From a virus, in IMG/VR virus record IMGVR_UViG_3300035670_000520, positions 1 to 40,731 of that record: a DNA stretch of 40,731 bases; one strand, written 5' to 3'. Positions 1 through 40,731 of this stretch are shown here, one piece after another (the first letter of the stretch is position 1; every line of letters begins with the position of its first letter). Position numbers and translations under genes: made by a program. The notes under the pieces were generated by a model. It did not search any database, was not told the origin of the DNA, and saw only the letters and a list, made by a program, of their open reading frames with translations.

Positions 1-127
1 CAGGCTTTGATGCCGTAGAGCGTGTAGGTCATTGATTTATATGGAAAAAATTTAGTTCCCCAAATTATCCCCAAATCCTCCCAAAAATTCAGCCCTCAAT
101 CATGCCACAGACGGAGGAGACCGCCCA
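1..127. repeat. Left copy of exact 127-bp terminal direct repeat
   Basis: caggctttgatgccgtagagcg...ggaggagaccgccca at 1-127 is identical to 40605-40731. Confidence 0.95.
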
Positions 128-214
128 CCCGACGAGTGATGCTGGCGGATCGCTTCCACTACGGTAGCCCTTCTGATACAAAGCGTCCGTCCATAGTCAC
201 GGAAGACCATTTCC

Positions 215-1348
215 ATGTCGTTCGATCCAGTAAAATTTGGCCTAGTCATCGGTAGCATCTATTCGAAAATCCCGCTACCAGAGTTGAACGGCAAGCTGAG
301 AGAGCTGCACCTGCCATCGGCTGGTTCGTGGCTTAAAACCGGTCAGGTTTTGACAGACTTGGCCATCACTAAGCTTACTCCCGCCCAGGAAGACGGGATG
401 ATCAAACTCTTGGCATGGATCGAGTCCTACATTTCCTACTCGCACAAAGTCGTCACGATTTTCAATTTAGGCAGACTGAGCTCTACCGACGGATCCAAGA
501 TTTCGGATGATTTTGAACAATCTTTGCCTAGTTCTAATGTGTTGTCTAACCATCCGGGCGGGCCATTCCCAGTCCTGGCTTCAGCTTCGCAGGCTGCAGG
601 CAACAGTGGAAGGGTAGTGTTAAGAGAACGCAGATCTTCCAATAAAGGTGAGGAATTTATATTTTCTTCCTTTAAAGAATACCATGTCAGGGAAAATGTG
701 CCGTTAGCGCAGGGTGATGGTGCGGCACTCCCCAAAATTTCTCAATACTACAAGTTGATCGGCCTCAGGCGGGTTGTTTACGAACACATTGATGTTGTTA
801 GGATTTCTCACGCATCAATAGGGGCAGGTTTAGGTAGCGTAGAAATTTTGTTAGACGGAATAAAACCTGGTGGTGCGACGCTAAATCCAGAGGAGATAGC
901 TTCTCGCTCGAAGATTTACGTGTCCATTCTTAATAAGTCGCTGGCATCATCGGGGTTATCTCTGCCAGCACCTCGAAACTTCTACCATGCTATGGATAAA
1001 ATCTATAATTCTAAAGAGGGTAATATTTGCGAGCTGTTCTTTACCACTACGATTGGCGGCTCAGTGAAGCGGGAAAAAATGAAGAAAAACACCGCTGACC
1101 TACGTAGCGAAACTTGGCATGCCGGCGGTCGGAATGCCATCGCGAGCGCGGTGGTGCCAGATAGCATTGATATTTATAGGTTAAGTGTTTCTTGGAAACT
1201 GGCTTTTTCCTCTGATGAGCCTATACTTTCTATTTTGGGATCATACAAAGCTCTTAGTACAGGAGCTGTTGAACATGCGCTGATAAGCGGGTGTACGGGT
1301 CCTGAGGCCTTCGAGCATGCCTTTTCCAACCTAATTAAATATACGTGA
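215..1348 (+). CDS. Hypothetical protein, 377 aa; gene 1 of AT-rich three-gene cassette
   Basis: ATG at 215, long clean ORF, AT-rich codon usage unlike the rest of the phage, next ORF starts 4 nt after its stop; no motif recognisable by eye. Confidence 0.75.
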   Translation: MSFDPVKFGLVIGSIYSKIPLPELNGKLRELHLPSAGSWLKTGQVLTDLAITKLTPAQEDGMIKLLAWIESYISYSHKVVTIFNLGRLSSTDGSKISDDFEQSLPSSNVLSNHPGGPFPVLASASQAAGNSGRVVLRERRSSNKGEEFIFSSFKEYHVRENVPLAQGDGAALPKISQYYKLIGLRRVVYEHIDVVRISHASIGAGLGSVEILLDGIKPGGATLNPEEIASRSKIYVSILNKSLASSGLSLPAPRNFYHAMDKIYNSKEGNICELFFTTTIGGSVKREKMKKNTADLRSETWHAGGRNAIASAVVPDSIDIYRLSVSWKLAFSSDEPILSILGSYKALSTGAVEHALISGCTGPEAFEHAFSNLIKYT

Positions 1349-1352
1349 ATCT

Positions 1353-1706
1353 ATGGATATCTCCCCAACATCTGAAATAGGTCGAGAGATTATTGCGAGA
1401 TCTCATACCATTTTCAAGGGCATGGGCGGCGCAGTACTAAATTTTCAGCGTCTTTGCTATCTGTTTAATGTCACAGACTTGAGTAAAGGCGCCGAAATAG
1501 CCGCGCTTCTTTGCAAGCGAGATGTTCATATTCTCAAGCATGTGTATTTTTTTATTGATGAAAGTGACTCTCCGTTGCTTTTGCGGGATTCGGTCGTTCA
1601 TAATTATGTAAAGACTGGCGAGCTGTTTAATCCGGTAACTAATGAGCTGGTTCCCTTCGATGAAGCTGAAGAGCGAATTGTTATTGAGTTTGAGGTGATG
1701 GAATGA
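1353..1706 (+). CDS. Hypothetical protein, 117 aa; gene 2 of cassette
   Basis: ATG at 1353, 4 nt after the upstream TGA; its stop overlaps the next start (ATGA at 1703-1706). Confidence 0.7.
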   Translation: MDISPTSEIGREIIARSHTIFKGMGGAVLNFQRLCYLFNVTDLSKGAEIAALLCKRDVHILKHVYFFIDESDSPLLLRDSVVHNYVKTGELFNPVTNELVPFDEAEERIVIEFEVME

Positions 1707-2314
1707 AGCCTCTAACTCTAGGTGCGGTGAGGTCGAAAGATCTTACACCTATGTTCAGAACTTTAATTGCGAATGCCATAGAATCCTATGATGATTTTGT
1801 GGGTGTGATTAATAATCATGTCGCTCACAGTATCAGAAGCATGGTTAGAGGGAAGCACAATCTTCAAGGGTTAAAAGAAGATCAGCTGACTACCCATATT
1901 ACCAACCAGTTTGAGAGCTTCGGTTTTAATGTTAGTCACGATAAGCAAATTGGCGGTCATGTCGATATTGTAATTGAATATGATCGGTACATATGGTTTG
2001 GAGAGGCCAAGATTCATAGTAGCTATAGTAATTTGGAAAAAGGCTGGCATCAATTAACGACACGGTATATGACGGGCATGCCTGGCGAAAACGAAGGATC
2101 GTTCTTCATATATAATTACAACCAGAACGCGTTGGCTGTAACTAATGAGTGGCGTAAGTTTCTTGATGAAAACCACCCCGATGTAGAGCAGGGGGAAATC
2201 GAGGATGGCCTTCACTTCCCGACTCGCTTAAATCATGAAGGCACGGGGTTATCTCTAAAAGTTAACCACTATAATATTCCGCTTTACTTTCAACCAAAGG
2301 ATAGAGGGGATTAA
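1703..2314 (+). CDS. PD-(D/E)xK (restriction-endonuclease-fold) nuclease-like protein, 203 aa; gene 3 of cassette
   Basis: Motif E71 ... GGHVD88IVI ... 12 residues ... GE101AK103I (GAT at 1964-1966, GAG-GCC-AAG at 2003-2011); translationally coupled to gene 2. Confidence 0.65.
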   Translation: MKPLTLGAVRSKDLTPMFRTLIANAIESYDDFVGVINNHVAHSIRSMVRGKHNLQGLKEDQLTTHITNQFESFGFNVSHDKQIGGHVDIVIEYDRYIWFGEAKIHSSYSNLEKGWHQLTTRYMTGMPGENEGSFFIYNYNQNALAVTNEWRKFLDENHPDVEQGEIEDGLHFPTRLNHEGTGLSLKVNHYNIPLYFQPKDRGD

Positions 2315-3417
2315 GCAACATCAATCCACTCAGCGCCACGACTGTCGCGGTACAGATCGGTCATCTTGGCCGAACGGTGACCCAGCAGTCGTTGTGCGTC
2401 TCGACCCTCTTCCTCATGTAGCCTGGCCGCCAAGGAACGCTGTTCGTGGAAGGTTGGCGGGCTGGCTCCCAAGTCGAGACCGAGTTTCTCTGCTGCCCTG
2501 TCCCGGGCGGCGGCGAACTCTTTGCTAATTGTGTCGAGCATAATGGGGGTGCCCGCCTTTGCACGGCTGATTGTTCGGTGGTGATGCACCAGGTGCTTCG
2601 ACAGCACCTGATCCCGGCAGCGTCGTATCACTTCACCCAGGCTCAAGTTGATGCATTTCAGTGTCACGCTGGTGCTGATCCTCAGCCTGGCCCCTGTCTT
2701 CGATTGGACGACCTGCAGGAATCCGTCCACCTCATCCTTGAAAACGAATGACGCGATATCCTCCCTTCGCTGGCCGGTTATAAGGGCGAGCTCCATTGCT
2801 CGCTTGAGCCATGGCTGGGCGGCCTCCTCGTAGATCGCCTTCCACAAGTCCAAGGTGAGGCGTTGGCGCTTGACCTTTACCCTTGCAGCTTTGGTGGCCT
2901 CGACAGGATTGGTGTCGACCCAGCCCCTAGCCATGGCTTCCATGAAAAGGTCGCGCAGTAGCGAACGCATTACCCTGGCCATCTGCGCCTTGCCCTCCTT
3001 GATTAGCGTCGATAGGTTGTCGGCGATGTCCATGGTGGTCAATGAGCGGATACCGCGCTCTCCGAAGGCCTTCTCTAGTCGGTTCAGGCGCATGTGTAGG
3101 TTGCGCATGCTCGACTCTGAAAGCTCGCGCTCCAGCAGGATCTGCCGGTATTCGACGACCCATTCACTGAATTTACGGTCAGGCACCGCCGGCTCGGGGG
3201 CCATGCGCGCTGAAAGGGTGGGAGGGGCAACCTGCAGCGCCATGTTGGCGGCGACCGCCTCCACGATCGCCTTGGCCTTGTCGCTGCCCAGGCCAAACAT
3301 CCGGTTGCTTACGGGGTCGCGGTACGTGTAGTAGGTGACCCCGTTTCGCTTGTCGGTTTTCCTGTAGAGATTGGGCGGTAGGTCCTTTGATCCAGGATTA
3401 CGCGGCCTGGGCGCCAT
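2311..3417 (-). CDS. int: Tyrosine integrase, lambda Int type
   Basis: N-terminus MAPRPRNPGSKDLPPNLYRK...YYTYRDP matches the lambda Int N-terminus (DLPPNLY); C-terminal HEQRSLAARL ... LLGHRS ... TDLY catalytic motifs. ATG at 3417 preferred over the in-frame TTG at 3432. Confidence 0.92.
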   Translation of the reverse strand: MAPRPRNPGSKDLPPNLYRKTDKRNGVTYYTYRDPVSNRMFGLGSDKAKAIVEAVAANMALQVAPPTLSARMAPEPAVPDRKFSEWVVEYRQILLERELSESSMRNLHMRLNRLEKAFGERGIRSLTTMDIADNLSTLIKEGKAQMARVMRSLLRDLFMEAMARGWVDTNPVEATKAARVKVKRQRLTLDLWKAIYEEAAQPWLKRAMELALITGQRREDIASFVFKDEVDGFLQVVQSKTGARLRISTSVTLKCINLSLGEVIRRCRDQVLSKHLVHHHRTISRAKAGTPIMLDTISKEFAAARDRAAEKLGLDLGASPPTFHEQRSLAARLHEEEGRDAQRLLGHRSAKMTDLYRDSRGAEWIDVA

Positions 3418-3640
3418 AACGTGCACTCGCAATTCTATTTACAAGGGAGCTGCCCACGGGAACGCGGGGCAGCGGCTCGGGCTCCCGGTAGCAGGCGTCA
3501 GCCTCAACATAGTAGCTGCGGCCGTGTTTTACCGGTGCCGGGGTGATCAGGCCCTCGCGGGCCCAACGGCGAAGAGTGTTGCTGCTGGGCGGCGTTCTGA
3601 AGTGATCGTGCGCCCATTCGTCGAGTGTGACTTTGCACAT
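3398..3640 (-). CDS. xis: Excisionase, lambda Xis type
   Basis: MCKVTLDEWAHDHFRTPPSSNTLRRWAREGLITPAPVKHGRSYY parallels lambda Xis (LQEW...TVRRWVRE...PPPVKDGREY); GGAG 6 nt upstream of ATG 3640; 20-nt overlap with int start as in lambda. Confidence 0.85.
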   Translation of the reverse strand: MCKVTLDEWAHDHFRTPPSSNTLRRWAREGLITPAPVKHGRSYYVEADACYREPEPLPRVPVGSSLVNRIASARYGAQAA

Positions 3641-8951: not shown

Positions 8952-9013
8952 ATAACCTGTGTTATGGATCGAATCATAACCCAGGTTTTCGCCATGTCAA
9001 TAACCCAAGTTAT
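8952..9013 (-). promoter_or_regulatory. Leftward early promoter (PL-like) with three operators (OL1-3)
   Basis: 14-bp sites ATAACCTGTGTTAT (8952-8965), ATAACCCAGGTTTT (8976-8989) and ATAACCCAAGTTAT (9000-9013), spaced 24 bp start to start. Minus-sense TTGACA (9000-8995), 16-nt spacer, TATGAT (8978-8973). Confidence 0.75.
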
Positions 9014-9023
9014 AAATCAGGCC

Positions 9024-9048
9024 AAAAAAAAGCCCGCGTTATGCGGGC
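9024..9048 (-). terminator. Rho-independent terminator after the SOS-controlled small gene
   Basis: Stem GCCCGC / GCGGGC (9032-9037 / 9043-9048), 5-nt loop, run of eight T on the minus strand (9024-9031). Confidence 0.75.
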
Positions 9049-9054
9049 GCTTGC

Positions 9055-9303
9055 TCATGATTCTGTAAAACCTCGCCATCCGATCCTGATCACGCCTGAC
9101 TCCAAGGTGTCGATCGTGATGCCGGAAGTCTCCTCGAGGTCGGAGATCAATCGCTTCCAATCGGTAGGGGATTCATCTGCGCTCGGCTTGACCTCAACAA
9201 ACTGCCTTTTCTGCACATGGGGTGACGAGATTGCTTGCTGGATACGGTAACCGAGCCGCTCGTAGGACCGCGCAGGGGATTGTGAGAAGGCAGGCTGAGG
9301 CAT
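9055..9303 (-). CDS. Small hypothetical protein, 82 aa, downstream of a LexA box (candidate SOS-induced antirepressor or similar)
   Basis: ATG at 9303 with AAGGAG upstream; SOS box 19 nt upstream; own terminator downstream. Confidence 0.7.
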   Translation of the reverse strand: MPQPAFSQSPARSYERLGYRIQQAISSPHVQKRQFVEVKPSADESPTDWKRLISDLEETSGITIDTLESGVIRIGWRGFTES

Positions 9304-9321
9304 GGCGTGAAACTCCTTTTA

Positions 9322-9337
9322 CTGTATGCATATACAG
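9322..9337. promoter_or_regulatory. LexA (SOS) box
   Basis: CTGTATGCATATACAG is a perfect CTGT-N8-ACAG palindrome matching the gammaproteobacterial LexA consensus CTGTATATATATACAG. Confidence 0.8.
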
Positions 9338-9402
9338 TTGCTCTTTGCTTAAGGAATTTCAATAGCTTATAGCTAATTTTTTTAGCTTGCGTTCGACCGG
9401 CC

Positions 9403-9426
9403 AAAAAAAAACCAGCAATTCGCCGG
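9403..9426 (-). terminator. Probable terminator downstream of the repressor gene
   Basis: Minus-sense CCGGC-GAATT-GCTGG hairpin (one G-U pair) followed by nine T. Confidence 0.5.
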
Positions 9427-9453
9427 GTCATTGGAGGCAGGGCAGGTATACCG

Positions 9454-10110
9454 TTAGAGCTTGATGGTAGCGCGTACCACGACCCCTACGATTCTGCAGC
9501 CCTCCATGCACATCTCCATAGGGTAGGCCGGATTGAGTGGTTTTAAGAACCGTCGCCCTCCGTCCTCCACCAGCTTTTTGAACGTCGCTTCATTGCTGTC
9601 GGCCAACTTTGCAACGACAAGCTTTCCAGGGATCGCTTCAGCCTCGGTGTCGACCAAGATGAGCATGCCCTCAGGGATGCTTGTACCCACTGGTGAAGTC
9701 ATCGAATCGCCTTTGACCTCAAGCCAAAATGCTGCCCCTTTGGAGTTGTAATCAGACATTTCGTAGCGATCAGAAAATCCAGGGGGGAATGGCTCGACCG
9801 CCTCCGCCCAAGCCCCAGCAGCTACCCAGCTGATCACCGGATACTTGAATGACTCGGGCTGCTCTCCCAACGCCCTCACATTGCTCGGCTCTCGCTGCGA
9901 GCCTTGTCCGGATGCCAGCCATTCGGCAGTCACGCCAAGAGCTCTCGCTATTTCAAGCAGCTTCTTAGAAGTCGAGTTTCGACCACTTTCCAGGTGCTGG
10001 ATCGTGACCTGGCTAACCCCGGCTTTCTCCGCCAGCTGGGCCTGGCTCAGGCCCAACGCCGTGCGACGTTCAAGGATTCGGTCTTTGAGCATTTCGGAAG
10101 GTTTGTTCAT
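9454..10110 (-). CDS. cI: CI-type prophage repressor (N-terminal XRE HTH, C-terminal S24 LexA-like autoprotease)
   Basis: ATG at 10110 (MNKPSEMLKDRILERRTALGLSQAQLAEKAGVSQVTIQHLESG). C-terminus AFWLEVKGDSMTSP...GMLILVD...ATFKKL...FLKPLNPAYPM is nearly collinear with lambda CI; AA-G cleavage motif in VISWVAAGAW. Confidence 0.92.
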   Translation of the reverse strand: MNKPSEMLKDRILERRTALGLSQAQLAEKAGVSQVTIQHLESGRNSTSKKLLEIARALGVTAEWLASGQGSQREPSNVRALGEQPESFKYPVISWVAAGAWAEAVEPFPPGFSDRYEMSDYNSKGAAFWLEVKGDSMTSPVGTSIPEGMLILVDTEAEAIPGKLVVAKLADSNEATFKKLVEDGGRRFLKPLNPAYPMEMCMEGCRIVGVVVRATIKL

Positions 10111-10122
10111 GCCTGCAAGGGT

Positions 10123-10185
10123 AAAACACACGTTATTAGTCATCAAATAACATGTGTTTGCCTTATCCATAACTTGAGTTATCAT
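10123..10185 (+). promoter_or_regulatory. Rightward early promoter (PR-like) with three operators (OR1-3)
   Basis: Sites AAAACACACGTTAT (10123-10136), ATAACATGTGTTTG (10147-10160) and ATAACTTGAGTTAT (10169-10182); TTGCCT (10158-10163), 16-nt spacer, TATCAT (10180-10185). Confidence 0.7.
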
Positions 10186-10215
10186 CGAGTGCACGATCCA
10201 TTGAGGCACGCAGAC

Positions 10216-10446
10216 ATGCCGAACACAGAAAGACCCATTGACGAGGTCGTGCGCTTGGCCGGAGGCCAGGCAGAGCTCGCCCGAAGATGTAACACCAGCC
10301 AACCACGTATTTGGCAGTGCGTGCACCGGAACCAGAAGGTGCCGGCAGATCTGGTGATCCCCCTCGAGAAGGCAGTAGGGGGTCAGGTTACCCGCCATCA
10401 GCTGAGACCTGACCTCTACCCGGCAGAGGATAAGTGCGCTTCGTGA
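10216..10446 (+). CDS. cro: Cro-like repressor (YdaS/Cro HTH family), 76 aa
   Basis: ATG at 10216 with GAGG upstream. GGQAELARRCNTSQPRIWQCV ... VPADLVIPLEKAVGGQVTRHQLRPDLYP matches the YdaS/Cro pattern; divergent from cI across the operators. Confidence 0.8.
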   Translation: MPNTERPIDEVVRLAGGQAELARRCNTSQPRIWQCVHRNQKVPADLVIPLEKAVGGQVTRHQLRPDLYPAEDKCAS

Positions 10447-10527
10447 TGAGCATTGTGCATCCGAAGGCTTTTAGCCAGTAGATGACCGAAACACCTGCGA
10501 ATCCATCCAGTAGCTGAATCGCAGACG

Positions 10528-10612
10528 AAAAAAAACCGCCTGGCAGGGCGGCTTTCTCTACAGCAAAGATCGAGGTCGATTATGCACCGCGCAGACGATG
10601 CAGGCAACACCA
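10528..10612 (-). ncRNA. Candidate oop-like antisense small RNA (about 80 nt)
   Basis: Minus-sense TTGGCG (10645-10640), 16 nt, TG-n-TATGGA extended -10 (10623-10618). Hairpin CCGCC/GGCGG (10536-10551) is followed on the minus strand by eight T (10535-10528). Confidence 0.3.
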
Positions 10613-10686
10613 CGCATTCCATATCAGGTTTTGGCATTTCGCCAAATCTGACGCGTCAGGCTTTCAGTCATGGAGGGCGTTCGTAA
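10582..10686 (+). CDS. Possible 34-aa upstream ORF coupled to the O-like gene
   Basis: GAGG 6 nt upstream of ATG 10582; TAATG overlap with the start at 10686; MHRADDAGNTTHSISGFGISPNLTRQAFSHGGRS. Confidence 0.25.
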   Translation: MHRADDAGNTTHSISGFGISPNLTRQAFSHGGRS

Positions 10687-11414
10687 TGGCACGTATCCGC
10701 ACCATCAAGCCTGAGTTCTGGACCAGTGAACAGGTCATGGAGTGCTCGGCGATGGCTCGACTCCTGTTCATCGGGATTTGGAACTTCTGCGACGACGCAG
10801 GCAACCACCCGATGTCCCCCAAGACCATCAAAGCTCTCGTTTTTCCTGGCGACGACATCACTGCGCTAGCGGTGGAAGGGCTACTCGCTGAGCTGGTATC
10901 GAACCGACTAATCACCATCTACGAGGCGGCATCGAAGCGGTACCTGCATGTCAACGGATGGCACCACCAGAAGATCGATAGACCTACCGTAAAGCACCCT
11001 GAATTCGTTGAGCCTTCGCCGAGCACTCACCGAGAGGTCGGCGAAGGCTCGTCTAGCGGTGATCGAGGCCTCACCCCCGGAAGGGAAGGGAAGGGAAGTA
11101 ATACACACTCTCCGCGTGAGCCGTTCGCGATGTTCCTCGATTGGCTTCCCGACCAGGTTCAGCTTGAGGCTTACGCCAAGCGCTCAGGGGTGGCCATCGA
11201 GGAGTTCTCGGAAAAGGCCATTTCGGGCTTTGTCGTCCATCACGACGCGAAGGGGTTGGCAAAAACCGAGAGCCAGTGGATCGCCGATCTGGTCGGCTGG
11301 AGAAAACGCGACATTGCGAATGCAGCGAAGGTCGTTCCTCTGAGGGCGGGGCCTTGTGGCCAGCAGCTCGACGACAGTGATACGTCGTGGATCGAGCAAG
11401 GAAGCGCCCAATGA
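10686..11414 (+). CDS. Putative replication initiator / replisome organiser in the lambda O position (DnaT-like C-terminal domain)
   Basis: MARIRTIKPEFWTSEQV N-terminus is common in phage replication proteins; the C-terminal region W-x-P...EEF...QW...WRKR is DnaT-domain-like; immediately precedes the P homologue with an ATGA overlap. Confidence 0.55.
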   Translation: MARIRTIKPEFWTSEQVMECSAMARLLFIGIWNFCDDAGNHPMSPKTIKALVFPGDDITALAVEGLLAELVSNRLITIYEAASKRYLHVNGWHHQKIDRPTVKHPEFVEPSPSTHREVGEGSSSGDRGLTPGREGKGSNTHSPREPFAMFLDWLPDQVQLEAYAKRSGVAIEEFSEKAISGFVVHHDAKGLAKTESQWIADLVGWRKRDIANAAKVVPLRAGPCGQQLDDSDTSWIEQGSAQ

Positions 11415-12097
11415 ACCGAGTCGCAGTTTTAACTCATGGCCTGTGGGCCAAGATTCAGACCGGCCAGCACGTCTCTGCTGGATACGAGCTGCCCGAAGAC
11501 GTGAGGGCAGAACTCAACCGGAAGACAGCGAAGGTGATCAACGATCTGTTCCGCGATCTGCGATCGATTTGCACAGCCTGGAAGCAGGCTTGGCCAGACC
11601 AGGCCACATACGACGCGTCCAAGCAGCAATGGCTGACCGCTTTTCTTGAGGCCGGCATCTGCAATCCCGAGCAGTTGCAGTTTGGGCTGATGCGCTGCCG
11701 CCAGTCGGGTGCGGCGTTCATTCCGCCACCCGGTGAGTTCATCCAGTGGTGCCAGCCGTCGCCCGAAATGCTCGGCCTCCCAGCATTGGCGGCCGCTTTC
11801 CGCGAAGCAACTCGCAATGCCCATCCTGCTATGGCTGGCAGGGGCAAGTGGAGTCACGACGCGGTATGGCACGCGGCCAAAGAGTGCGGCTTCGAGAACC
11901 TTAACAAGCTGCCGTCCGATGCCAGTTCGAAGCTGTTCGAGCGCAACTACAGCATTGCGGTTCGTCGGCTGATGGCTGGGGAGCCGCTGCAGAAGATGCC
12001 ACTGGCCCTTCCCGCAGAGGTTGCCGCACGCAGCACCCCGCAAGTCGGAAACTCTGCCCTAGTCGCCATGCGTGCCCGCTTGGCGGGGCGCCGATAA
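11411..12097 (+). CDS. P: Replication protein P (lambda P-like helicase loader)
   Basis: QQWLTAFLEAGICNPEQLQFGLMRCRQSGAAFIPPPGEFIQWC parallels lambda P RQWVLAFRENGITTMEQVNAGMRVARRQNRPFLPSPGQFVAWC. Confidence 0.8.
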   Translation: MNRVAVLTHGLWAKIQTGQHVSAGYELPEDVRAELNRKTAKVINDLFRDLRSICTAWKQAWPDQATYDASKQQWLTAFLEAGICNPEQLQFGLMRCRQSGAAFIPPPGEFIQWCQPSPEMLGLPALAAAFREATRNAHPAMAGRGKWSHDAVWHAAKECGFENLNKLPSDASSKLFERNYSIAVRRLMAGEPLQKMPLALPAEVAARSTPQVGNSALVAMRARLAGRR

Positions 12098-12121
12098 ATC
12101 AACCTGCAAGGAGGCGATCTT

Positions 12122-12418
12122 GTGCGCCAAACAAAACTGACCAAGGCCGCCCGTGGCCGGGAGTGCCAAGTGCGCATTCCGGGCGTGTGCAACGGCAACC
12201 CGGAAACCACCGTCCTGGCGCATTACCGCATGGCTAGCACCTCTGGCATCGGCAGCAAGCCGCATGACCTGCAGGGCGCCTGGGCCTGTAGCACTTGCCA
12301 CGATGTCTGTGACGGGCGTAGCAAAGCCGTGGATCGAGAGACGGCGCGCCATTACCACGCTGAGGGAGTGATGCGCACCCAGGCGATCCTGCTGGCTGAG
12401 GCGGTAGTGGTCGCATGA
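12122..12418 (+). CDS. ybcO: YbcO-like putative nuclease (DUF1364)
   Basis: KAARGRECQVRIPGVCNGNPETTVLAHYR ... ACSTCHD is almost identical in pattern to E. coli DLP12 YbcO; GTG start with AAGGAGG upstream. Confidence 0.85.
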   Translation: MRQTKLTKAARGRECQVRIPGVCNGNPETTVLAHYRMASTSGIGSKPHDLQGAWACSTCHDVCDGRSKAVDRETARHYHAEGVMRTQAILLAEAVVVA

Positions 12419-13740
12419 GCGCGACCCGGGAAGTGAAGTTGAGCGAGGCCGAGGTGCGCCGGCAAGCCGCTGATAAGGCCGTACGCGACCTGCGCGACCC
12501 ACGTTACCCGGGCTTGCGGTTTCGATTCGACCAGAGCCGGCAGGCTGGAACGTGGTTCCTGGTTGTTCGCCGCAAGTGGAACCGGCTAGCGCGCTTCCCT
12601 GAGTATGGTCCGGCGGCAATCTTTGCCGAGCTTCCCGGACTACGGCAGCGCTTGCTGTGCCGTCCGGACGAGATGGTTGCTCTGGCTGGCCTGGTGACAT
12701 TCCACGACCTGCTGGTCTGGTTCAAGGGGCGGGTCGTCACTGACGCCTCGCTGTCCGATTCGTGGAAGAGCACTGTTCGCACGGTAGTCGATAAGCACTT
12801 GCAGCCCCGCCTCGGCGAGTTGCCGATACTCGCCCTCACCCCAGCAGTGCTGGACAAGTCGCTGATGTGGCCGCTCCAGGCTAAATGTTCCACGTCCTAC
12901 GTTCGGCAGATTTTCAGAGTGTTAAGCCTGGCAGTGAGCACGGCGCGGGCGCTTGGGCTAATCCCCAGCAATCCCATGGCTGAGATGAAATTCACGAACT
13001 TTATCAAGACCAAGATCGCGCCGAAAGATGGGCGACTGCGCGCGGATCATCTGCAAGAGGTGGTGCCCGCGCTCGGCGCTCTCTTCAGCACCGCGCCCGT
13101 CGATGCCATGTTGGCGCTGCTGATGATCTGCCACGGCACCAGGGTTGGCGAGAGCCGTAGGGCAGAGTGGCCCGACTTCGCCTTGGGCCATGGCGAGTGG
13201 GTCATTCCCGCCAAGCACACCAAGACGCGCACCGAACACCGTTTGCCACTAACCCCGCAGATGTGCGCGCTGTTGCGCCGTTATCGGGCCGTCCAGCTCG
13301 ATAGCGGGTACACCGGCAAGTACCTGTTCCCAGGTCGCAAAGGGCAGCCCATGAGTTCCAGCCAGGCCTCGTCGGTATTTCGTCGTTTGGCCAGCCGCGA
13401 GTGGTCGAGCCACGACCTGCGGAAGGTGGCGCGTACCGCTTGGCTCGACATGGGGGTGGACGGATTTATTGGCGAAATGCTGCTCAATCACTCGCTAGGG
13501 AAAGTTGCTGATACCTACATCAAAACCAAGGGCAACGGCTTGCGTCGCGAGGCTCTGGAGCAATGGCATGAGTGGTTAGACGGGATTGGCTTTGCGTCGA
13601 TCCATGGGTTGACCGGCGTGCAATCCGCAATTCCTCACAATGGGCCGCAAGCCAAGCCGCGCAAGGCACGCAGCCCAATCAACGAATTAGTTACAGGGGA
13701 GAATGCAGAACGTGAAAAATCGCCCTCAGGATGGCTTTAA
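12415..13740 (+). CDS. Second tyrosine recombinase (P4/CP4-57-type integrase with DUF4102-like arm domain), 441 aa
   Basis: N-terminus GLRFRFDQSRQAGTWFLV; catalytic set HGTRVGE (R), HDLRKVA (HxxR), LLNHS (H), ADTYIK (Y); ATGA overlap with ybcO. Confidence 0.85.
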   Translation: MSATREVKLSEAEVRRQAADKAVRDLRDPRYPGLRFRFDQSRQAGTWFLVVRRKWNRLARFPEYGPAAIFAELPGLRQRLLCRPDEMVALAGLVTFHDLLVWFKGRVVTDASLSDSWKSTVRTVVDKHLQPRLGELPILALTPAVLDKSLMWPLQAKCSTSYVRQIFRVLSLAVSTARALGLIPSNPMAEMKFTNFIKTKIAPKDGRLRADHLQEVVPALGALFSTAPVDAMLALLMICHGTRVGESRRAEWPDFALGHGEWVIPAKHTKTRTEHRLPLTPQMCALLRRYRAVQLDSGYTGKYLFPGRKGQPMSSSQASSVFRRLASREWSSHDLRKVARTAWLDMGVDGFIGEMLLNHSLGKVADTYIKTKGNGLRREALEQWHEWLDGIGFASIHGLTGVQSAIPHNGPQAKPRKARSPINELVTGENAEREKSPSGWL

Positions 13741-14032
13741 ACGGCCGCGCCTGGACTTGGTTCAGTGCCCGGTATGCAGGGGTAATGCGGTAGTGAAGGG
13801 AGTGTTTTATGAGTTGTTGTGCACCGACTGCAATGGCTCTGGTTGGGTTATTGAAGGGTCCAGGTTGGTGCTTCCCCTCGAGGAGCTGGTCACGCAGCTG
13901 AGTTTTAAGTTGCAGCAGGCTCAGAGACAAATCAAAGCGCTGGAAAGGCCGACCAAAGTAGTTGGTCCGCAGCAGCAATACCAAGAATCGAACCGCCTGG
14001 GGGCGGGCGGCACAAATTACACAGGGGATTGA
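13703..14032 (+). CDS. Zinc-finger protein (DnaJ-type CxxCxG motifs), 109 aa
   Basis: CPVCRGNA ... CTDCNGSG; GGGGAG upstream of ATG 13703; overlaps the recombinase 3' end by 38 nt. Confidence 0.65.
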   Translation: MQNVKNRPQDGFKRPRLDLVQCPVCRGNAVVKGVFYELLCTDCNGSGWVIEGSRLVLPLEELVTQLSFKLQQAQRQIKALERPTKVVGPQQQYQESNRLGAGGTNYTGD

Positions 14033-14424
14033 TCATGATGATTCGCAAGCCAGCCGGCCGCCCATTGGGTGATACCGAGTATTTGCTAGAGCAGTGGGGG
14101 TGGTGGCGAATGGATGGAGCGGGTGTGCCTACCTGCGTCTCCCCAACATTGGCTTTGATGCATCAGGCAGTGCCGCAGGCGTCCGCCAGTCGAAACTACT
14201 GCATCACTGACGACTGGGCGCTTGCAATTGATAGTGCCGTCGCCAGGCTTGCGCACCGCGATCTACAAATGGGCGACATCATCTGGCTGTACTACGGGGC
14301 AAAATGGCCCATGTTGCGGGTGGGTAAGCACTTCGGCCTGAGTGAGGGCAAAGCTAGGGAGCTGGCTAGGGCAGCGGCAGCCTGGATCGACTGCGCTGTA
14401 AGCGTAATGCGCGACGCGGCATAA
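14029..14424 (+). CDS. Q: Late-gene antiterminator Q (QuuD / phage-82 type)
   Basis: LEQWGWW ... ITDDWALAIDSAVARL ... collinear with E. coli QuuD (LERWGAWA ... CDDDAMIICGCMARL); located after the nin-type genes and before the late promoter. Confidence 0.8.
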   Translation: MIMMIRKPAGRPLGDTEYLLEQWGWWRMDGAGVPTCVSPTLALMHQAVPQASASRNYCITDDWALAIDSAVARLAHRDLQMGDIIWLYYGAKWPMLRVGKHFGLSEGKARELARAAAAWIDCAVSVMRDAA

Positions 14425-14433
14425 AGTGCGTAA

Positions 14434-14462
14434 TTGCACGAATGTAGCCACCCTCCTATATT
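14434..14462 (+). promoter_or_regulatory. Late promoter (PR'-like)
   Basis: TTGCAC (14434-14439), 17-nt spacer, TATATT (14457-14462), 10 nt after the Q stop; AATTGCAC repeated at 14432 and 14476. Confidence 0.7.
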
Positions 14463-14635
14463 GCGACTGAAGGGGCAATTGCACTGTAGTGACGACCGGC
14501 AGAACACGACCCTTGGCTGCCCTCCGTGGAGGTCAGCTAACGGCTAGTAACAATCAGTCGCCATAGCTCATTAAGATTGTGAGCTGTTCTCGATGAGGTT
14601 AGCCTTACCAAGGCTTAACACAGTCAGTTGAGGAG

Positions 14636-15307
14636 ATGTGCGTGAGTCCAAACGAGGAAGCGGAAACGACCAAGGCCTCCAATGTGGTTGATATGGCTTT
14701 GACATTCACCGCAATGATTCGACTATTTGAGACGGGTTCAAAGCAAAGAATCTTGGATCAGCTACATAAGTCGTTCAGTAAGCTTTCTGATGTTTCCAGT
14801 TATCAGGAATATCATTTAATACACCTTGAATTTTGCAAGTGGTTTGAAGGTAATATATTTACCGCGTCGAAGATTCTTAAGAATAAGTCTGAAAAAATCA
14901 GCGGGCCGGCATCATATGGGCACGCCGCCAAAATATTCGACATCGCTGTGAAGGTTTATGTGCATTATAGTTATTTGCCGAATTCCAAGGCCGCAGCGAC
15001 GCTGTTACCGTTTCTTCGTGGTGCAATCGATACTCCAATAATGAGCTTTCTCAAGGCTAAGTATCCCCTTGCGGGAATAAAGGCCAAAACAATAGAGGCG
15101 CTTGGAATGCCGGAGTATGAAGCGCTCCAGGGTCTGATTGCTAGACATATCCAAGAGGAGTTTCAGGGTAAGATATTCCCAGTGCAATACGATGACGTTA
15201 TGTGGCATAGGCTAAACCGAAGTGACAGAAATGAGGATTCGCTTCAGAAGCAACGAAACCAAAGGCTCTCAGCCTCGGTTAAAATTTTAGAGCCTACTTT
15301 GGATTGA
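14636..15307 (+). CDS. Low-GC moron protein, 223 aa, unknown function (start may be GTG 14642)
   Basis: AT-rich ORF between the late promoter and the tandem terminators. AGGAG abuts ATG 14636 and lies 6 nt from GTG 14642; no recognised motif. Confidence 0.75.
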   Translation: MCVSPNEEAETTKASNVVDMALTFTAMIRLFETGSKQRILDQLHKSFSKLSDVSSYQEYHLIHLEFCKWFEGNIFTASKILKNKSEKISGPASYGHAAKIFDIAVKVYVHYSYLPNSKAAATLLPFLRGAIDTPIMSFLKAKYPLAGIKAKTIEALGMPEYEALQGLIARHIQEEFQGKIFPVQYDDVMWHRLNRSDRNEDSLQKQRNQRLSASVKILEPTLD

Positions 15308-15469
15308 TTCTGCAACGTCGCGCCCAGGCCGATTGATCAGGCTGGACGCAACCAGACGGAGCGGTGGAGCGCAATTTTTGCATAAAGCAAAAAAAGTACT
15401 TTTCCGCGCGGAATAGATTTGATTTTATATCAGCGTGTGTTGCTGTGAACGCAGCGCGACGCTTTAAAG

Positions 15470-15494
15470 AACCCGGCCCCGAGTCGGGTTTTTT
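15470..15494 (+). terminator. Rho-independent terminator (first of a tandem pair, tR'-like)
   Basis: AACCCG / CGGGTT stem followed by a T run. Confidence 0.65.
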
Positions 15495-15506
15495 ATGCCC
15501 GTTTCA

Positions 15507-15538
15507 AGCCCTGCCATTGAGCGGGGCTTTTTCGTTTT
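15507..15538 (+). terminator. Rho-independent terminator (second of the tandem pair)
   Basis: AGCCCTGC-cattga-GCGGGGCT stem followed by TTTTCGTTTT. Confidence 0.7.
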
Positions 15539-15604
15539 CGGCCCTACGCCTGCTCCTCGCTTCAAGCGGATGCCAGTGACGTGGGAGCCGACCTAATTTG
15601 AGGA

Positions 15605-40192: not shown

Positions 40193-40468
40193 TTATTGAG
40201 TGTCGCGGACGTACCAGCCGATTTGTTGAGCCTTTCCCGCATATCGTTTGATTGCTTCGGAGTAAGCCTCTTTGAGCTCAGGAGACCGCTTATTGAGAGT
40301 ATTTTCGATTGCTAGGATGACGTCACCAGAGTGTATGTCTGTGCCGAGCTCTTCGTATGCTTGCTTCAAAGCTCTGTGAAAGCGCTGATCATCGAGAATA
40401 TGCGCAGTGTGCCAAGTATCGACGCGGAGCCACGGATTCAGCAGCTCTTCCAACCTTTCTATGTCCAT
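40193..40468 (-). CDS. Hypothetical protein, 91 aa, lower GC, divergent (across the window junction) from the three-gene cassette
   Basis: ATG at 40468 with GGAGG RBS (MDIERLEELLNPW...). Confidence 0.6.
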   Translation of the reverse strand: MDIERLEELLNPWLRVDTWHTAHILDDQRFHRALKQAYEELGTDIHSGDVILAIENTLNKRSPELKEAYSEAIKRYAGKAQQIGWYVRDTQ

Positions 40469-40604
40469 AATCCTCCCCAAAACACATACGCAAGTAACTG
40501 ATTTTGTTGGAGCCAAAAAGGCTATTATCGAGCTTGTTTCAAGTCGAAGATTTCTATTTAAGCCACTGATTTTACTAGGGAAAAATCACAATGGTCATGC
40601 ATCC

Positions 40605-40731
40605 CAGGCTTTGATGCCGTAGAGCGTGTAGGTCATTGATTTATATGGAAAAAATTTAGTTCCCCAAATTATCCCCAAATCCTCCCAAAAATTCAGCCCT
40701 CAATCATGCCACAGACGGAGGAGACCGCCCA
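40605..40731. repeat. Right copy of exact 127-bp terminal direct repeat
   Basis: Identical to 1-127 and ends exactly at the window end. Confidence 0.95.

Follow-up and report, generated by a model that had tools for sequence, protein, structure and literature searches.

The viral DNA analysed here, IMG/VR record IMGVR_UViG_3300035670_000520 (positions 1 to 40,731; this whole stretch of 40,731 nucleotides is hereafter called the window), carries near its left end a three-gene cassette, A-B-C, that probably encodes a defence or exclusion system in which protein C is the nuclease effector and protein B the coupling adaptor. As far as can be determined, the cassette is an undescribed candidate defence system. 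This reading is built on the co-occurrence of the three genes, on a predicted nuclease fold with invariant catalytic residues in C, and on variant loci in which B forms the C-terminal domain of a restriction enzyme with C encoded next to it. This arrangement connects the cassette directly with DNA restriction. The elements of the cassette are as follows.

128..214, + strand: leader, presumed promoter region
215..1348, + strand: gene A, open reading frame (ORF) of 377 amino acids (aa)
1353..1706, + strand: gene B, ORF of 117 aa
1703..2314, + strand: gene C, ORF of 203 aa

The initial annotation, made from the letters of the window, had described three packed ORFs with a 4-nt gap, an ATGA overlap and a stop shared with the convergent integrase gene int, and all of this holds: A and B are joined by TGA-atct-ATG, B and C by ATGA, and the TTAA at 2311-2314 is common to the stop codons of C and int. 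Its impression of an AT-rich block was equally sound, as the G+C content (GC) of A-B-C is 44.4 % (A 46.6, B 42.4, C 41.5) against 59.5 % in int and 61.8 % in the remaining genome, the block being the 2.1-kb stretch of lowest GC in the phage genome; GC at third codon positions is 41-48 % in the cassette genes vs 73 % in int. Two of its statements need amending. Only A, and not both upstream proteins, is larger than C, with B the smallest of the three; and the native upstream region, which it had placed at 40470-40604, would in a lysogen be the junction of attachment (att) site and host, that is, window 1-214. A Shine-Dalgarno-like GGAAG is situated 9 nt ahead of the ATG of gene A, and scans of the window for promoters and terminators gave nothing beyond what shuffled sequences gave.

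To collect relatives, C was used as the seed (50 genomic loci, 67 viral loci and 4 GenBank-phage loci), and the loci were classified with family hidden Markov models (HMMs). A, B and C were found in that order on one strand in 108 of 122 C-seeded loci, with eight further loci devoid of A and six cut by contig ends. Among the 116 informative loci there were no exceptions to two layouts, namely A+B+C (108) and a restriction enzyme-B fusion followed by C (8). In most A+B+C loci the genes overlap or nearly abut. Throughout the genome, viral and phage sets, A was present wherever B was free and absent wherever B was fused to a restriction enzyme. The reciprocal scan, starting from a coherent A subfamily, returned 27 viral contigs, every one of which had already been found via C, and tblastn of A against 50,697 phage records retrieved the same records as C. 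It had been suggested at the outset to check whether the three genes form a conserved block in unrelated surroundings. The 108 A+B+C loci among 116 informative ones and 27 of 27 reciprocal hits indicate that they do, and an independent metagenome sample contributed 51 more A+B+C loci.

The system occurs in Proteobacteria, Cyanobacteria, Bacteroidota and Firmicutes and in many prophages. Eleven of the 50,697 phage records contain the cassette, all of them temperate phages, prophages or prophage-like contigs, and E. coli copies are found in 23 of 5,426 complete genomes. A split variant was also seen (L022:3302-8435), in which A has a 166-aa N-terminal extension and two ORFs (175 and 540 aa, no Pfam match) separate A from B-C.

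The three proteins and the restriction-enzyme partners of B

By its structure model and conservation, C is a divergent, predicted PD-(D/E)xK nuclease with putative metal-dependent cleavage activity. The AlphaFold2 (AF2) model (predicted local distance difference test, pLDDT, 88; predicted template modelling score, pTM, 0.84) comprises an N-terminal helical region (1-72) and an alpha/beta nuclease core (76-193), with D88 on strand 86-93 and E101-A-K103 on the adjacent strand 96-104. Nine residues (E59, G85, D88, E101, K103, G114, Q117, R121 and Y122) show no variation among 105 homologs (105/105), some as distant as ~25 % identity, and D60 is conserved too. Of the restriction-endonuclease core that the initial annotation had drawn from E71, D88, E101 and K103, the last three residues therefore stand, and E71, which is not conserved, falls away. 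The check by AlphaFold and Foldseek proposed there came out in favour of a predicted PD-(D/E)xK fold with an invariant D...ExK: the D...(D/E)-x-K motif is on adjacent strands, and the alpha-beta-beta-beta-alpha-beta core is recovered with weak scores. Five of the six best PDB matches are annotated as PD-(D/E)xK-type nucleases (Cdn1, EndoMS/NucS, R2 endonuclease). The top match, 1y88/AF1548 (probability 0.99), is deposited as 'unknown function'; we take it to be restriction-endonuclease-like. Can2 and R.BspD6I rank lower (20th, 23rd, 27th), and RNA-cutting members of the superfamily (cap-snatching endonucleases, Can2) are listed as well, weakly. C matches phrog_9664 at 2e-46 (unknown function) and no Pfam nuclease family.

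B is acidic throughout its family (median isoelectric point 4.76, net charge -9), and matches only PHROGs (phrog_11490, unknown function). Its gene overlaps that of C in most loci (-1/-4 nt; ATGA in the window). In the eight loci without A, a large restriction protein stands directly before C, often with a 4-nt overlap, and each of these proteins ends in a full-length B domain of ~130 residues, which covers HMM positions 3-131 of 136, with hmmsearch E-values of 1e-13 to 1e-19 and an hhalign probability of 99.4 %. Six of the partners are Type ISP enzymes (Mrr_cat_2, ResIII, Helicase_C, ISP_coupler, N6_Mtase and Type_ISP_C domains), one is a Type I HsdR, and one is a ResIII helicase preceded by a separate Eco57I-type methyltransferase. 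The Type ISP fusions, in Alphaproteobacteria, share a ~140-aa extension beyond Type_ISP_C that is homologous to B, and the C gene is always next; in one of these partners the PADLOC IIG model stops at residue 1635 of 1775. The metagenome sample yielded eight further Type ISP fusions, a second split methyltransferase/helicase locus and a Type III variant. The fusion loci are listed here.

L007:2662-7989, L017:2629-7968, L006, L008, L010, L012; also L165, L172, L174-L176, L218: Type ISP-B fusion loci
L039:688-8606: Type I locus (HsdM, HsdS, HsdR-B, C), with HsdM and HsdS upstream of HsdR
L161:1502-7618: EcoP15I-like Type III system from the metagenome (Mod, then Res with a C-terminal B domain), C downstream

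A distance tree separates the C proteins linked to restriction enzymes into at least two groups, and on these sequences B-C appears to have been coupled to restriction enzymes at least twice independently. The partners are not nuclease-less enzymes for which C acts as a replacement, an idea that we rejected: the Type ISP partners retain the Mrr catalytic motif, and the HsdR and Res partners retain their nuclease/helicase regions. Nor was any relation found that would make C a copy of the Mrr-type nuclease domain of Type ISP enzymes. We conclude that B-C is a portable adaptor-plus-nuclease module, driven by A or by restriction enzymes dependent on nucleoside triphosphates (NTPs).

Other arrangements were found besides. 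Three ~1,125-aa HEAT-repeat proteins (L215:1385-4762, L228:753-4133 and L229:377-3757) carry a C domain at their C-terminus in loci without B, with HEAT-type repeats at ~470-666 and the C-type nuclease domain at 939-1116, its catalytic motif intact; with C joined directly to a repeat-type sensor in this way, the adaptor is dispensable. The metagenome sample also held small N-domain-B proteins of unrecognised type, and one locus in which A is followed by an extended, 402-aa B. Two proteins of 386-387 aa (L179:755-1918, L212:24-1184) consist of an unidentified N-terminal domain of ~245 aa fused to B, followed by C; the domain looks acyltransferase-like by eye only and would be another alternative front end. 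At locus L025, the partner of B-C has an N-terminus that resembles GIY-YIG/T5orf172 by eye only, and directly downstream of B-C (8967-14420) lies a gene for a 1,817-aa protein with DUF4011, an AAA_11/12 helicase, an MTES_1575 restriction endonuclease and a GreA/GreB C-terminal domain (Hhe-like).

A is proposed to be the front-end or sensor protein of the cassette. Its AF2 model (pLDDT 84, pTM 0.83) starts with a helical bundle at the N-terminus (1-75), after which come two beta-sheet/helix units. Residues 265-310 (GGSVKREKMK..ADLRxExWHAGG) form the conserved core, which is rich in K and R, A being near neutral family-wide; the sole low-confidence part of the model (293-318) falls inside this most conserved segment. 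D214 and G305 are invariant in the family, R297 is conserved to 98 %, and T278, D193 and E287 to >90 %. An exhaustive profile search gave 536 clusters at 50 % identity, virtually all of them stand-alone proteins of 330-400 aa, and the PHROGs match is phrog_12777 (unknown function). Foldseek found no significant PDB fold match for A, the resemblances to CENP-N/L and Bet v 1/SRPBCC being weak and below significance. In BFVD, the model of A retrieved a weak TBP-like match and, as the best viral structural match, a 373-aa protein of the Providencia phage Kokobel1 labelled 'Exonuclease'; this lead was dropped, as tblastn found no A-like genes in Kokobel1. The possibilities that A is a cryptic part of a restriction enzyme or contains an internal repeat were rejected with hhalign probabilities of <2 %.

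In line with the initial annotation, which could match the cassette to no named system, A, B and C of the window match nothing in Pfam, NCBIfam (June 2026) or PADLOC-DB 2.0, the last of which includes the PD-T4/T7/Lambda, Gao, Millman and Rousset systems and the PDC candidates. Among 150 diverse family members, too, no Pfam or NCBIfam family was hit, and PDC-S54 was the sole recurring PADLOC match, as a weak exception in ten of them (best E-value 5e-6). Sequence-profile searches of the PDB with all three proteins gave nothing. The E. coli copies are annotated as hypothetical proteins in RefSeq (September 2026); one of them, the B homolog WP_001041173.1, is listed by DefensePredictor as a 'putative novel defense gene' with a log-odds of 6.28, the strict cut-off being 4 (PMC13092281). 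Searches by accession, PHROG id and topic, which did not cover Brenes & Laub 2025, found no published description of the cassette, and the supplements of the language-model defence paper gave no match when searched for motifs.

Genomic contexts and the att site of the phage

The cassette occupies sites that are known as slots for defence genes or cargo. In P2-like phages of Klebsiella and enterobacteria, A-B-C is inserted between the replication gene and the portal/terminase genes. This site is the region between P2 gpA and gpQ that was defined as a defence hotspot by Rousset et al. 2022 (PMC9122126). In Stx1a and Stx2e converting phages of E. coli, it is placed between the antiterminator gene Q and stx, on the strand opposite to the late operon:

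L001:3532-5639 and L122:7001-9108: Stx-phage cassettes

In the Stx2e phage, the cassette stands beside a DNA methyltransferase gene and a tRNA cluster. On a Pseudomonas plasmid it adjoins an AbiEi gene, and among Pseudomonas prophages it fills the cargo slot between att and int in two and is found at the other end of a third. A survey of two genes on each side of 38 chromosomal loci returned integrases, resolvases, a transposase and phage genes, as well as the defence systems Mokosh, Type I and Type IV restriction, DRT2, Hhe and PDC candidates.

For the phage of the window, the following features bear on the position of the cassette.

1..127: left copy of an exact 127-nt direct repeat, identical to window 40605-40731
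40605..40731: right copy of the exact 127-nt direct repeat
1..32, - strand: first 32 nt of a host arsC/yffB-family gene (MTYTLYGIKA...), inside the att core, as read from the sequence
2311..3432, - strand: int, lambda-type tyrosine integrase (Arm-DNA-bind_1 5e-32, Phage_int_SAM_1, Phage_integrase 9e-13); context, outside the system

Counting the terminal repeat once, the unit genome has 40,604 bp. Because the repeat holds the first 32 nt of the arsC/yffB-family gene, the phage apparently integrates into, and replaces, the 5' end of that gene, and window 1-32 would restore this end upon integration; a tRNA search found no tRNA at the att site. In an integrated relative in a Pseudomonas genome (L149), nucleotide homology to the window begins at window ~40602/1, and the gene order runs from the host arsC-family gene through A-B-C, int and xis to phage genes. 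Its gene A is 80 % identical to that of the window, and is directly flanked by a PF03960 ArsC gene that starts at the position equivalent to window 1-32. Since the homology starts at window ~1 and window 1-32 encodes the start of the host gene, the left edge of the repeat is the left boundary of the att core. Taken together, the homology of L149 and this att edge make the cassette the outermost cargo, located between att and int, in agreement with the int-proximal cargo slot assigned to it in the first place. The arrangement of cassette and int is the same in L149-L151, of which the short contigs L150 and L151 end at position 5. A further Pseudomonas prophage, L152, whose A is 48 % identical, has the cassette behind its tail and lysis genes, at the opposite end of the prophage.

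The remainder of the window phage is a novel temperate Pseudomonas myovirus, of which the sheath and tube genes alone resemble a known phage (PS17). Several side observations concern this genome. As 127 nt is also a common assembler k-mer, the terminal repeat may have arisen at the att node as an overlap in the assembly graph. A 91-aa ORF without Pfam match (window 40193-40468, - strand) sits on the far side of the att core and, once the genome is circular, is divergent from gene A; the two are separated by a 349-nt stretch of 46 % GC, and the ORF may be a second piece of cargo. Window ~13400-15600 is the sole other 2.1-kb stretch with lowered GC (~0.52 vs a median of 0.62) and may be another acquired gene.

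Proposed mechanism and competing explanations

In the model that we favour, A-B-C would be a mobile, prophage-borne superinfection-exclusion system with the layout sensor - adaptor - nuclease. C would be its effector, a metal-dependent PD-(D/E)xK endonuclease, and B, presumably made in 1:1 coupling with C, would dock it onto the front end and probably keep it harmless. The front end would be A in the stand-alone form, and elsewhere the motor (R) subunit of a Type I, III, ISP or split helicase-type enzyme. Upon engaging invading DNA, it would activate or release the tethered nuclease, and activated C would degrade DNA, so that the infection would be aborted or the invader destroyed. The computational tests support the reading of a candidate undescribed defence system with which the analysis had started; physical contacts among A, B and C, the latency of C, its DNA substrate, the trigger and the defence phenotype itself are what we infer. 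To the specific version, with a front end that senses DNA and then activates the tethered nuclease, we attach somewhat less than even confidence. More tentative still is the possibility that B-C is a plug-in effector, an acidic tether plus a latent nuclease, repeatedly joined to Type I/III/ISP motors, HEAT-repeat sensors and the new-fold sensor A.

Several observations weigh against this model. That A senses DNA is a guess, because it has no recognisable DNA-binding or NTPase domain and its fold resemblances are below significance. The Foldseek scores of C are weak (E-values >= 1e-3, template modelling (TM) scores 0.26-0.32), and a consensus scan found no sigma-70 promoter on the + strand of window 1-214. 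Numerous chromosomal neighbours of the cassette are housekeeping genes, and its E. coli homologs (WP_000646552, WP_001041173 and WP_000969103, the operon of the Stx phage) are not among the cloned and tested units in the DefensePredictor tables (PMC13092281). The A-B-C form comes without a methyltransferase or other evident self-protection. Besides, since the restriction partners keep their own nuclease domains, C is not needed for their basic cleavage, and this retention fits a back-up role for C at least as well as a direct one.

Such a back-up role is the core of the strongest alternative, which we consider nearly as likely as the favoured model, if still rather unlikely taken by itself. 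As in PrrC-EcoprrI or PARIS, C would be held as a guard: a phage inhibitor would disable the front end, B would free C, and the cell would be killed by cutting of DNA or RNA, the trigger thus being a phage protein. PrrC is kept silent by a Type Ic enzyme, and PARIS frees its nuclease upon sensing Ocr. Alongside partners that keep their own nucleases, which make C resemble a second layer and not a catalytic subunit, this explanation can invoke the translational coupling of acidic B to C, reminiscent of an immunity- or antitoxin-type mask, the lack of a self-protection gene in the A-B-C form, and the RNA-cutting PD-(D/E)xK enzymes among the weak structural matches of C. It has to contend, however, with an A for which nothing indicates a likeness to a restriction enzyme or a known inhibitor target (hhalign <2 %), with four mechanistically different restriction classes whose inhibitors would all have to signal alike through B, and with the absence of any ATPase or HEPN module such as those of PrrC, RloC and AriA.

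The other explanations are progressively less likely. A constitutive restriction-like enzyme, which we regard as doubtful, would have A recognise modified or phage-specific DNA in the manner of Type IV enzymes, B as a bridge and C as the catalytic subunit; in the fusions, C would supply a second cutting activity to enzymes whose cleavage depends on two sites or on a collision. Every alternative partner of B-C is indeed a DNA-binding restriction subunit, the conserved core of A is K/R-rich and finds weak TBP- and CENP-N/L-like fold matches, a missing methyltransferase is typical for modification-dependent enzymes, and carriage by temperate phages with ordinary DNA would fit. Yet A contains no detectable reader, helix-turn-helix or nuclease-associated domain, its family is near neutral and not basic, and we know of no precedent for an acidic adaptor interposed between a recognition and a catalytic subunit.

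An addiction module similar to toxin-antitoxin pairs, with C as toxin, B as antitoxin and A as regulator, which would stabilise prophages, plasmids and restriction-modification islands, seems improbable to us. A small acidic protein encoded ahead of a nuclease with overlapping codons, carriage on prophages and plasmids, and the patchy occurrence in E. coli (23/5,426) are what one would expect of it. However, the permanent fusion of B to restriction enzymes of 1,000-1,800 aa is hard to square with a labile antitoxin, A is large, strictly co-inherited and conserved, and three loci have a C-HEAT fusion and no B; numerous toxin-antitoxin modules serve defence anyway. Least probable are ordinary phage genes for DNA metabolism, i.e. 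a recombination or exonuclease module for the phage's own replication, which the 'Exonuclease' label on the best viral match of A and the nuclease nature of C might suggest, but which is contradicted by the place of the cassette at the att end, outside the functional modules and convergent with int, by its foreign GC, its occurrence in non-phage chromosomal loci and with restriction enzymes, its confinement to 11/50,697 phage records of temperate/prophage type that do not include Kokobel1, and its differing position between related phages.

If confirmed, the cassette would add a widespread defence system, none of whose components present-day annotation recognises. From the B fusions it seems that Type I, III and ISP restriction enzymes can carry a tethered accessory nuclease, which matters for the question of how such enzymes face phages able to evade or inhibit them, and for the way in which interchangeable sensors, adaptors and effectors are combined into defence systems. 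Should the plug-in reading be true, this would amount to a general second layer: classical restriction enzymes would also serve to sense infection and would then set loose an additional nuclease, and A would be a new class of stand-alone infection sensor with the same output. As cargo between Q and stx, the cassette may also influence which phages superinfect pathogenic E. coli.

Relation to known defence systems

Rst_3HP ('hp+hp+hp'; Rousset et al. 2022, PMC9122126) is the one P2-hotspot system of three hypothetical proteins that has been described; it resides between gpA and gpQ and protects experimentally against P1. Both consist of three genes without predicted domains in this hotspot; their protein sizes differ (~330/360/225 aa in Rst_3HP vs ~370/130/215 aa in A-B-C), and the two are unrelated, with HMM scores of ~0 bits and hhalign probabilities of <=1 % in all nine pairings with the pFR109 proteins. 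PDC-S54 shares the nuclease core alone: residues 53-164 of the C protein of the Stx-phage locus L001 match positions 258-369 of the 410 in its profile, covering this core. Unlike A-B-C, it is a 410-aa single-gene candidate with no equivalents of A or B, and the match of the window's own C is not significant. With NucS/EndoMS, Cdn1, Can2, the R2 endonuclease and AF1548, C has in common a similar predicted core and a catalytic D...ExK on adjacent strands; it differs from these fold-matched nucleases by an N-terminal helical region with E59-D60 and an invariant Q117-x3-R121-Y122 helix motif. Type I, III or ISP restriction-modification systems proper are represented in the variant loci only, as the window cassette has no methyltransferase, helicase or ATPase domains.

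Among two-component systems, PARIS combines the ABC ATPase AriA with the Toprim nuclease AriB. Like PARIS, A-B-C is prophage-borne (PARIS also being carried by satellites) and, on our proposal, has a sensor scaffold that holds a nuclease for release on infection, yet it shows no homology to AriA or AriB. In Hachiman, the DUF1837 PD-(D/E)xK nuclease HamA is controlled by the superfamily 2 (SF2) helicase HamB. A PD-(D/E)xK effector paired with a controlling helicase-type sensor is a likeness to the variant loci, and the proposed logic, a sensor on DNA that unleashes a nuclease, would be shared. In contrast to Hachiman, to which there is no sequence relation (Pfam and PADLOC returned neither a DUF1837 nor a helicase match), the window form has no helicase or NTPase and a separate adaptor is interposed.

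PrrC-EcoprrI, finally, is a latent nuclease coupled genetically and physically to a Type I restriction enzyme. Like PrrC and RloC, the restriction-linked loci place an extra nuclease in an operon with an NTP-dependent restriction enzyme, presumably held there as a second line of defence. PrrC and RloC consist of an ABC-ATPase and an anticodon RNase, neither of which has a counterpart in A, B or C; C, in contrast, is of PD-(D/E)xK type, small, and devoid of an ATPase. Coupling would here be achieved via the dedicated adaptor domain B on the R subunit, and, unlike PrrC-EcoprrI, B-C accompanies Type I, III and ISP enzymes and also pairs with the unrelated, stand-alone A.

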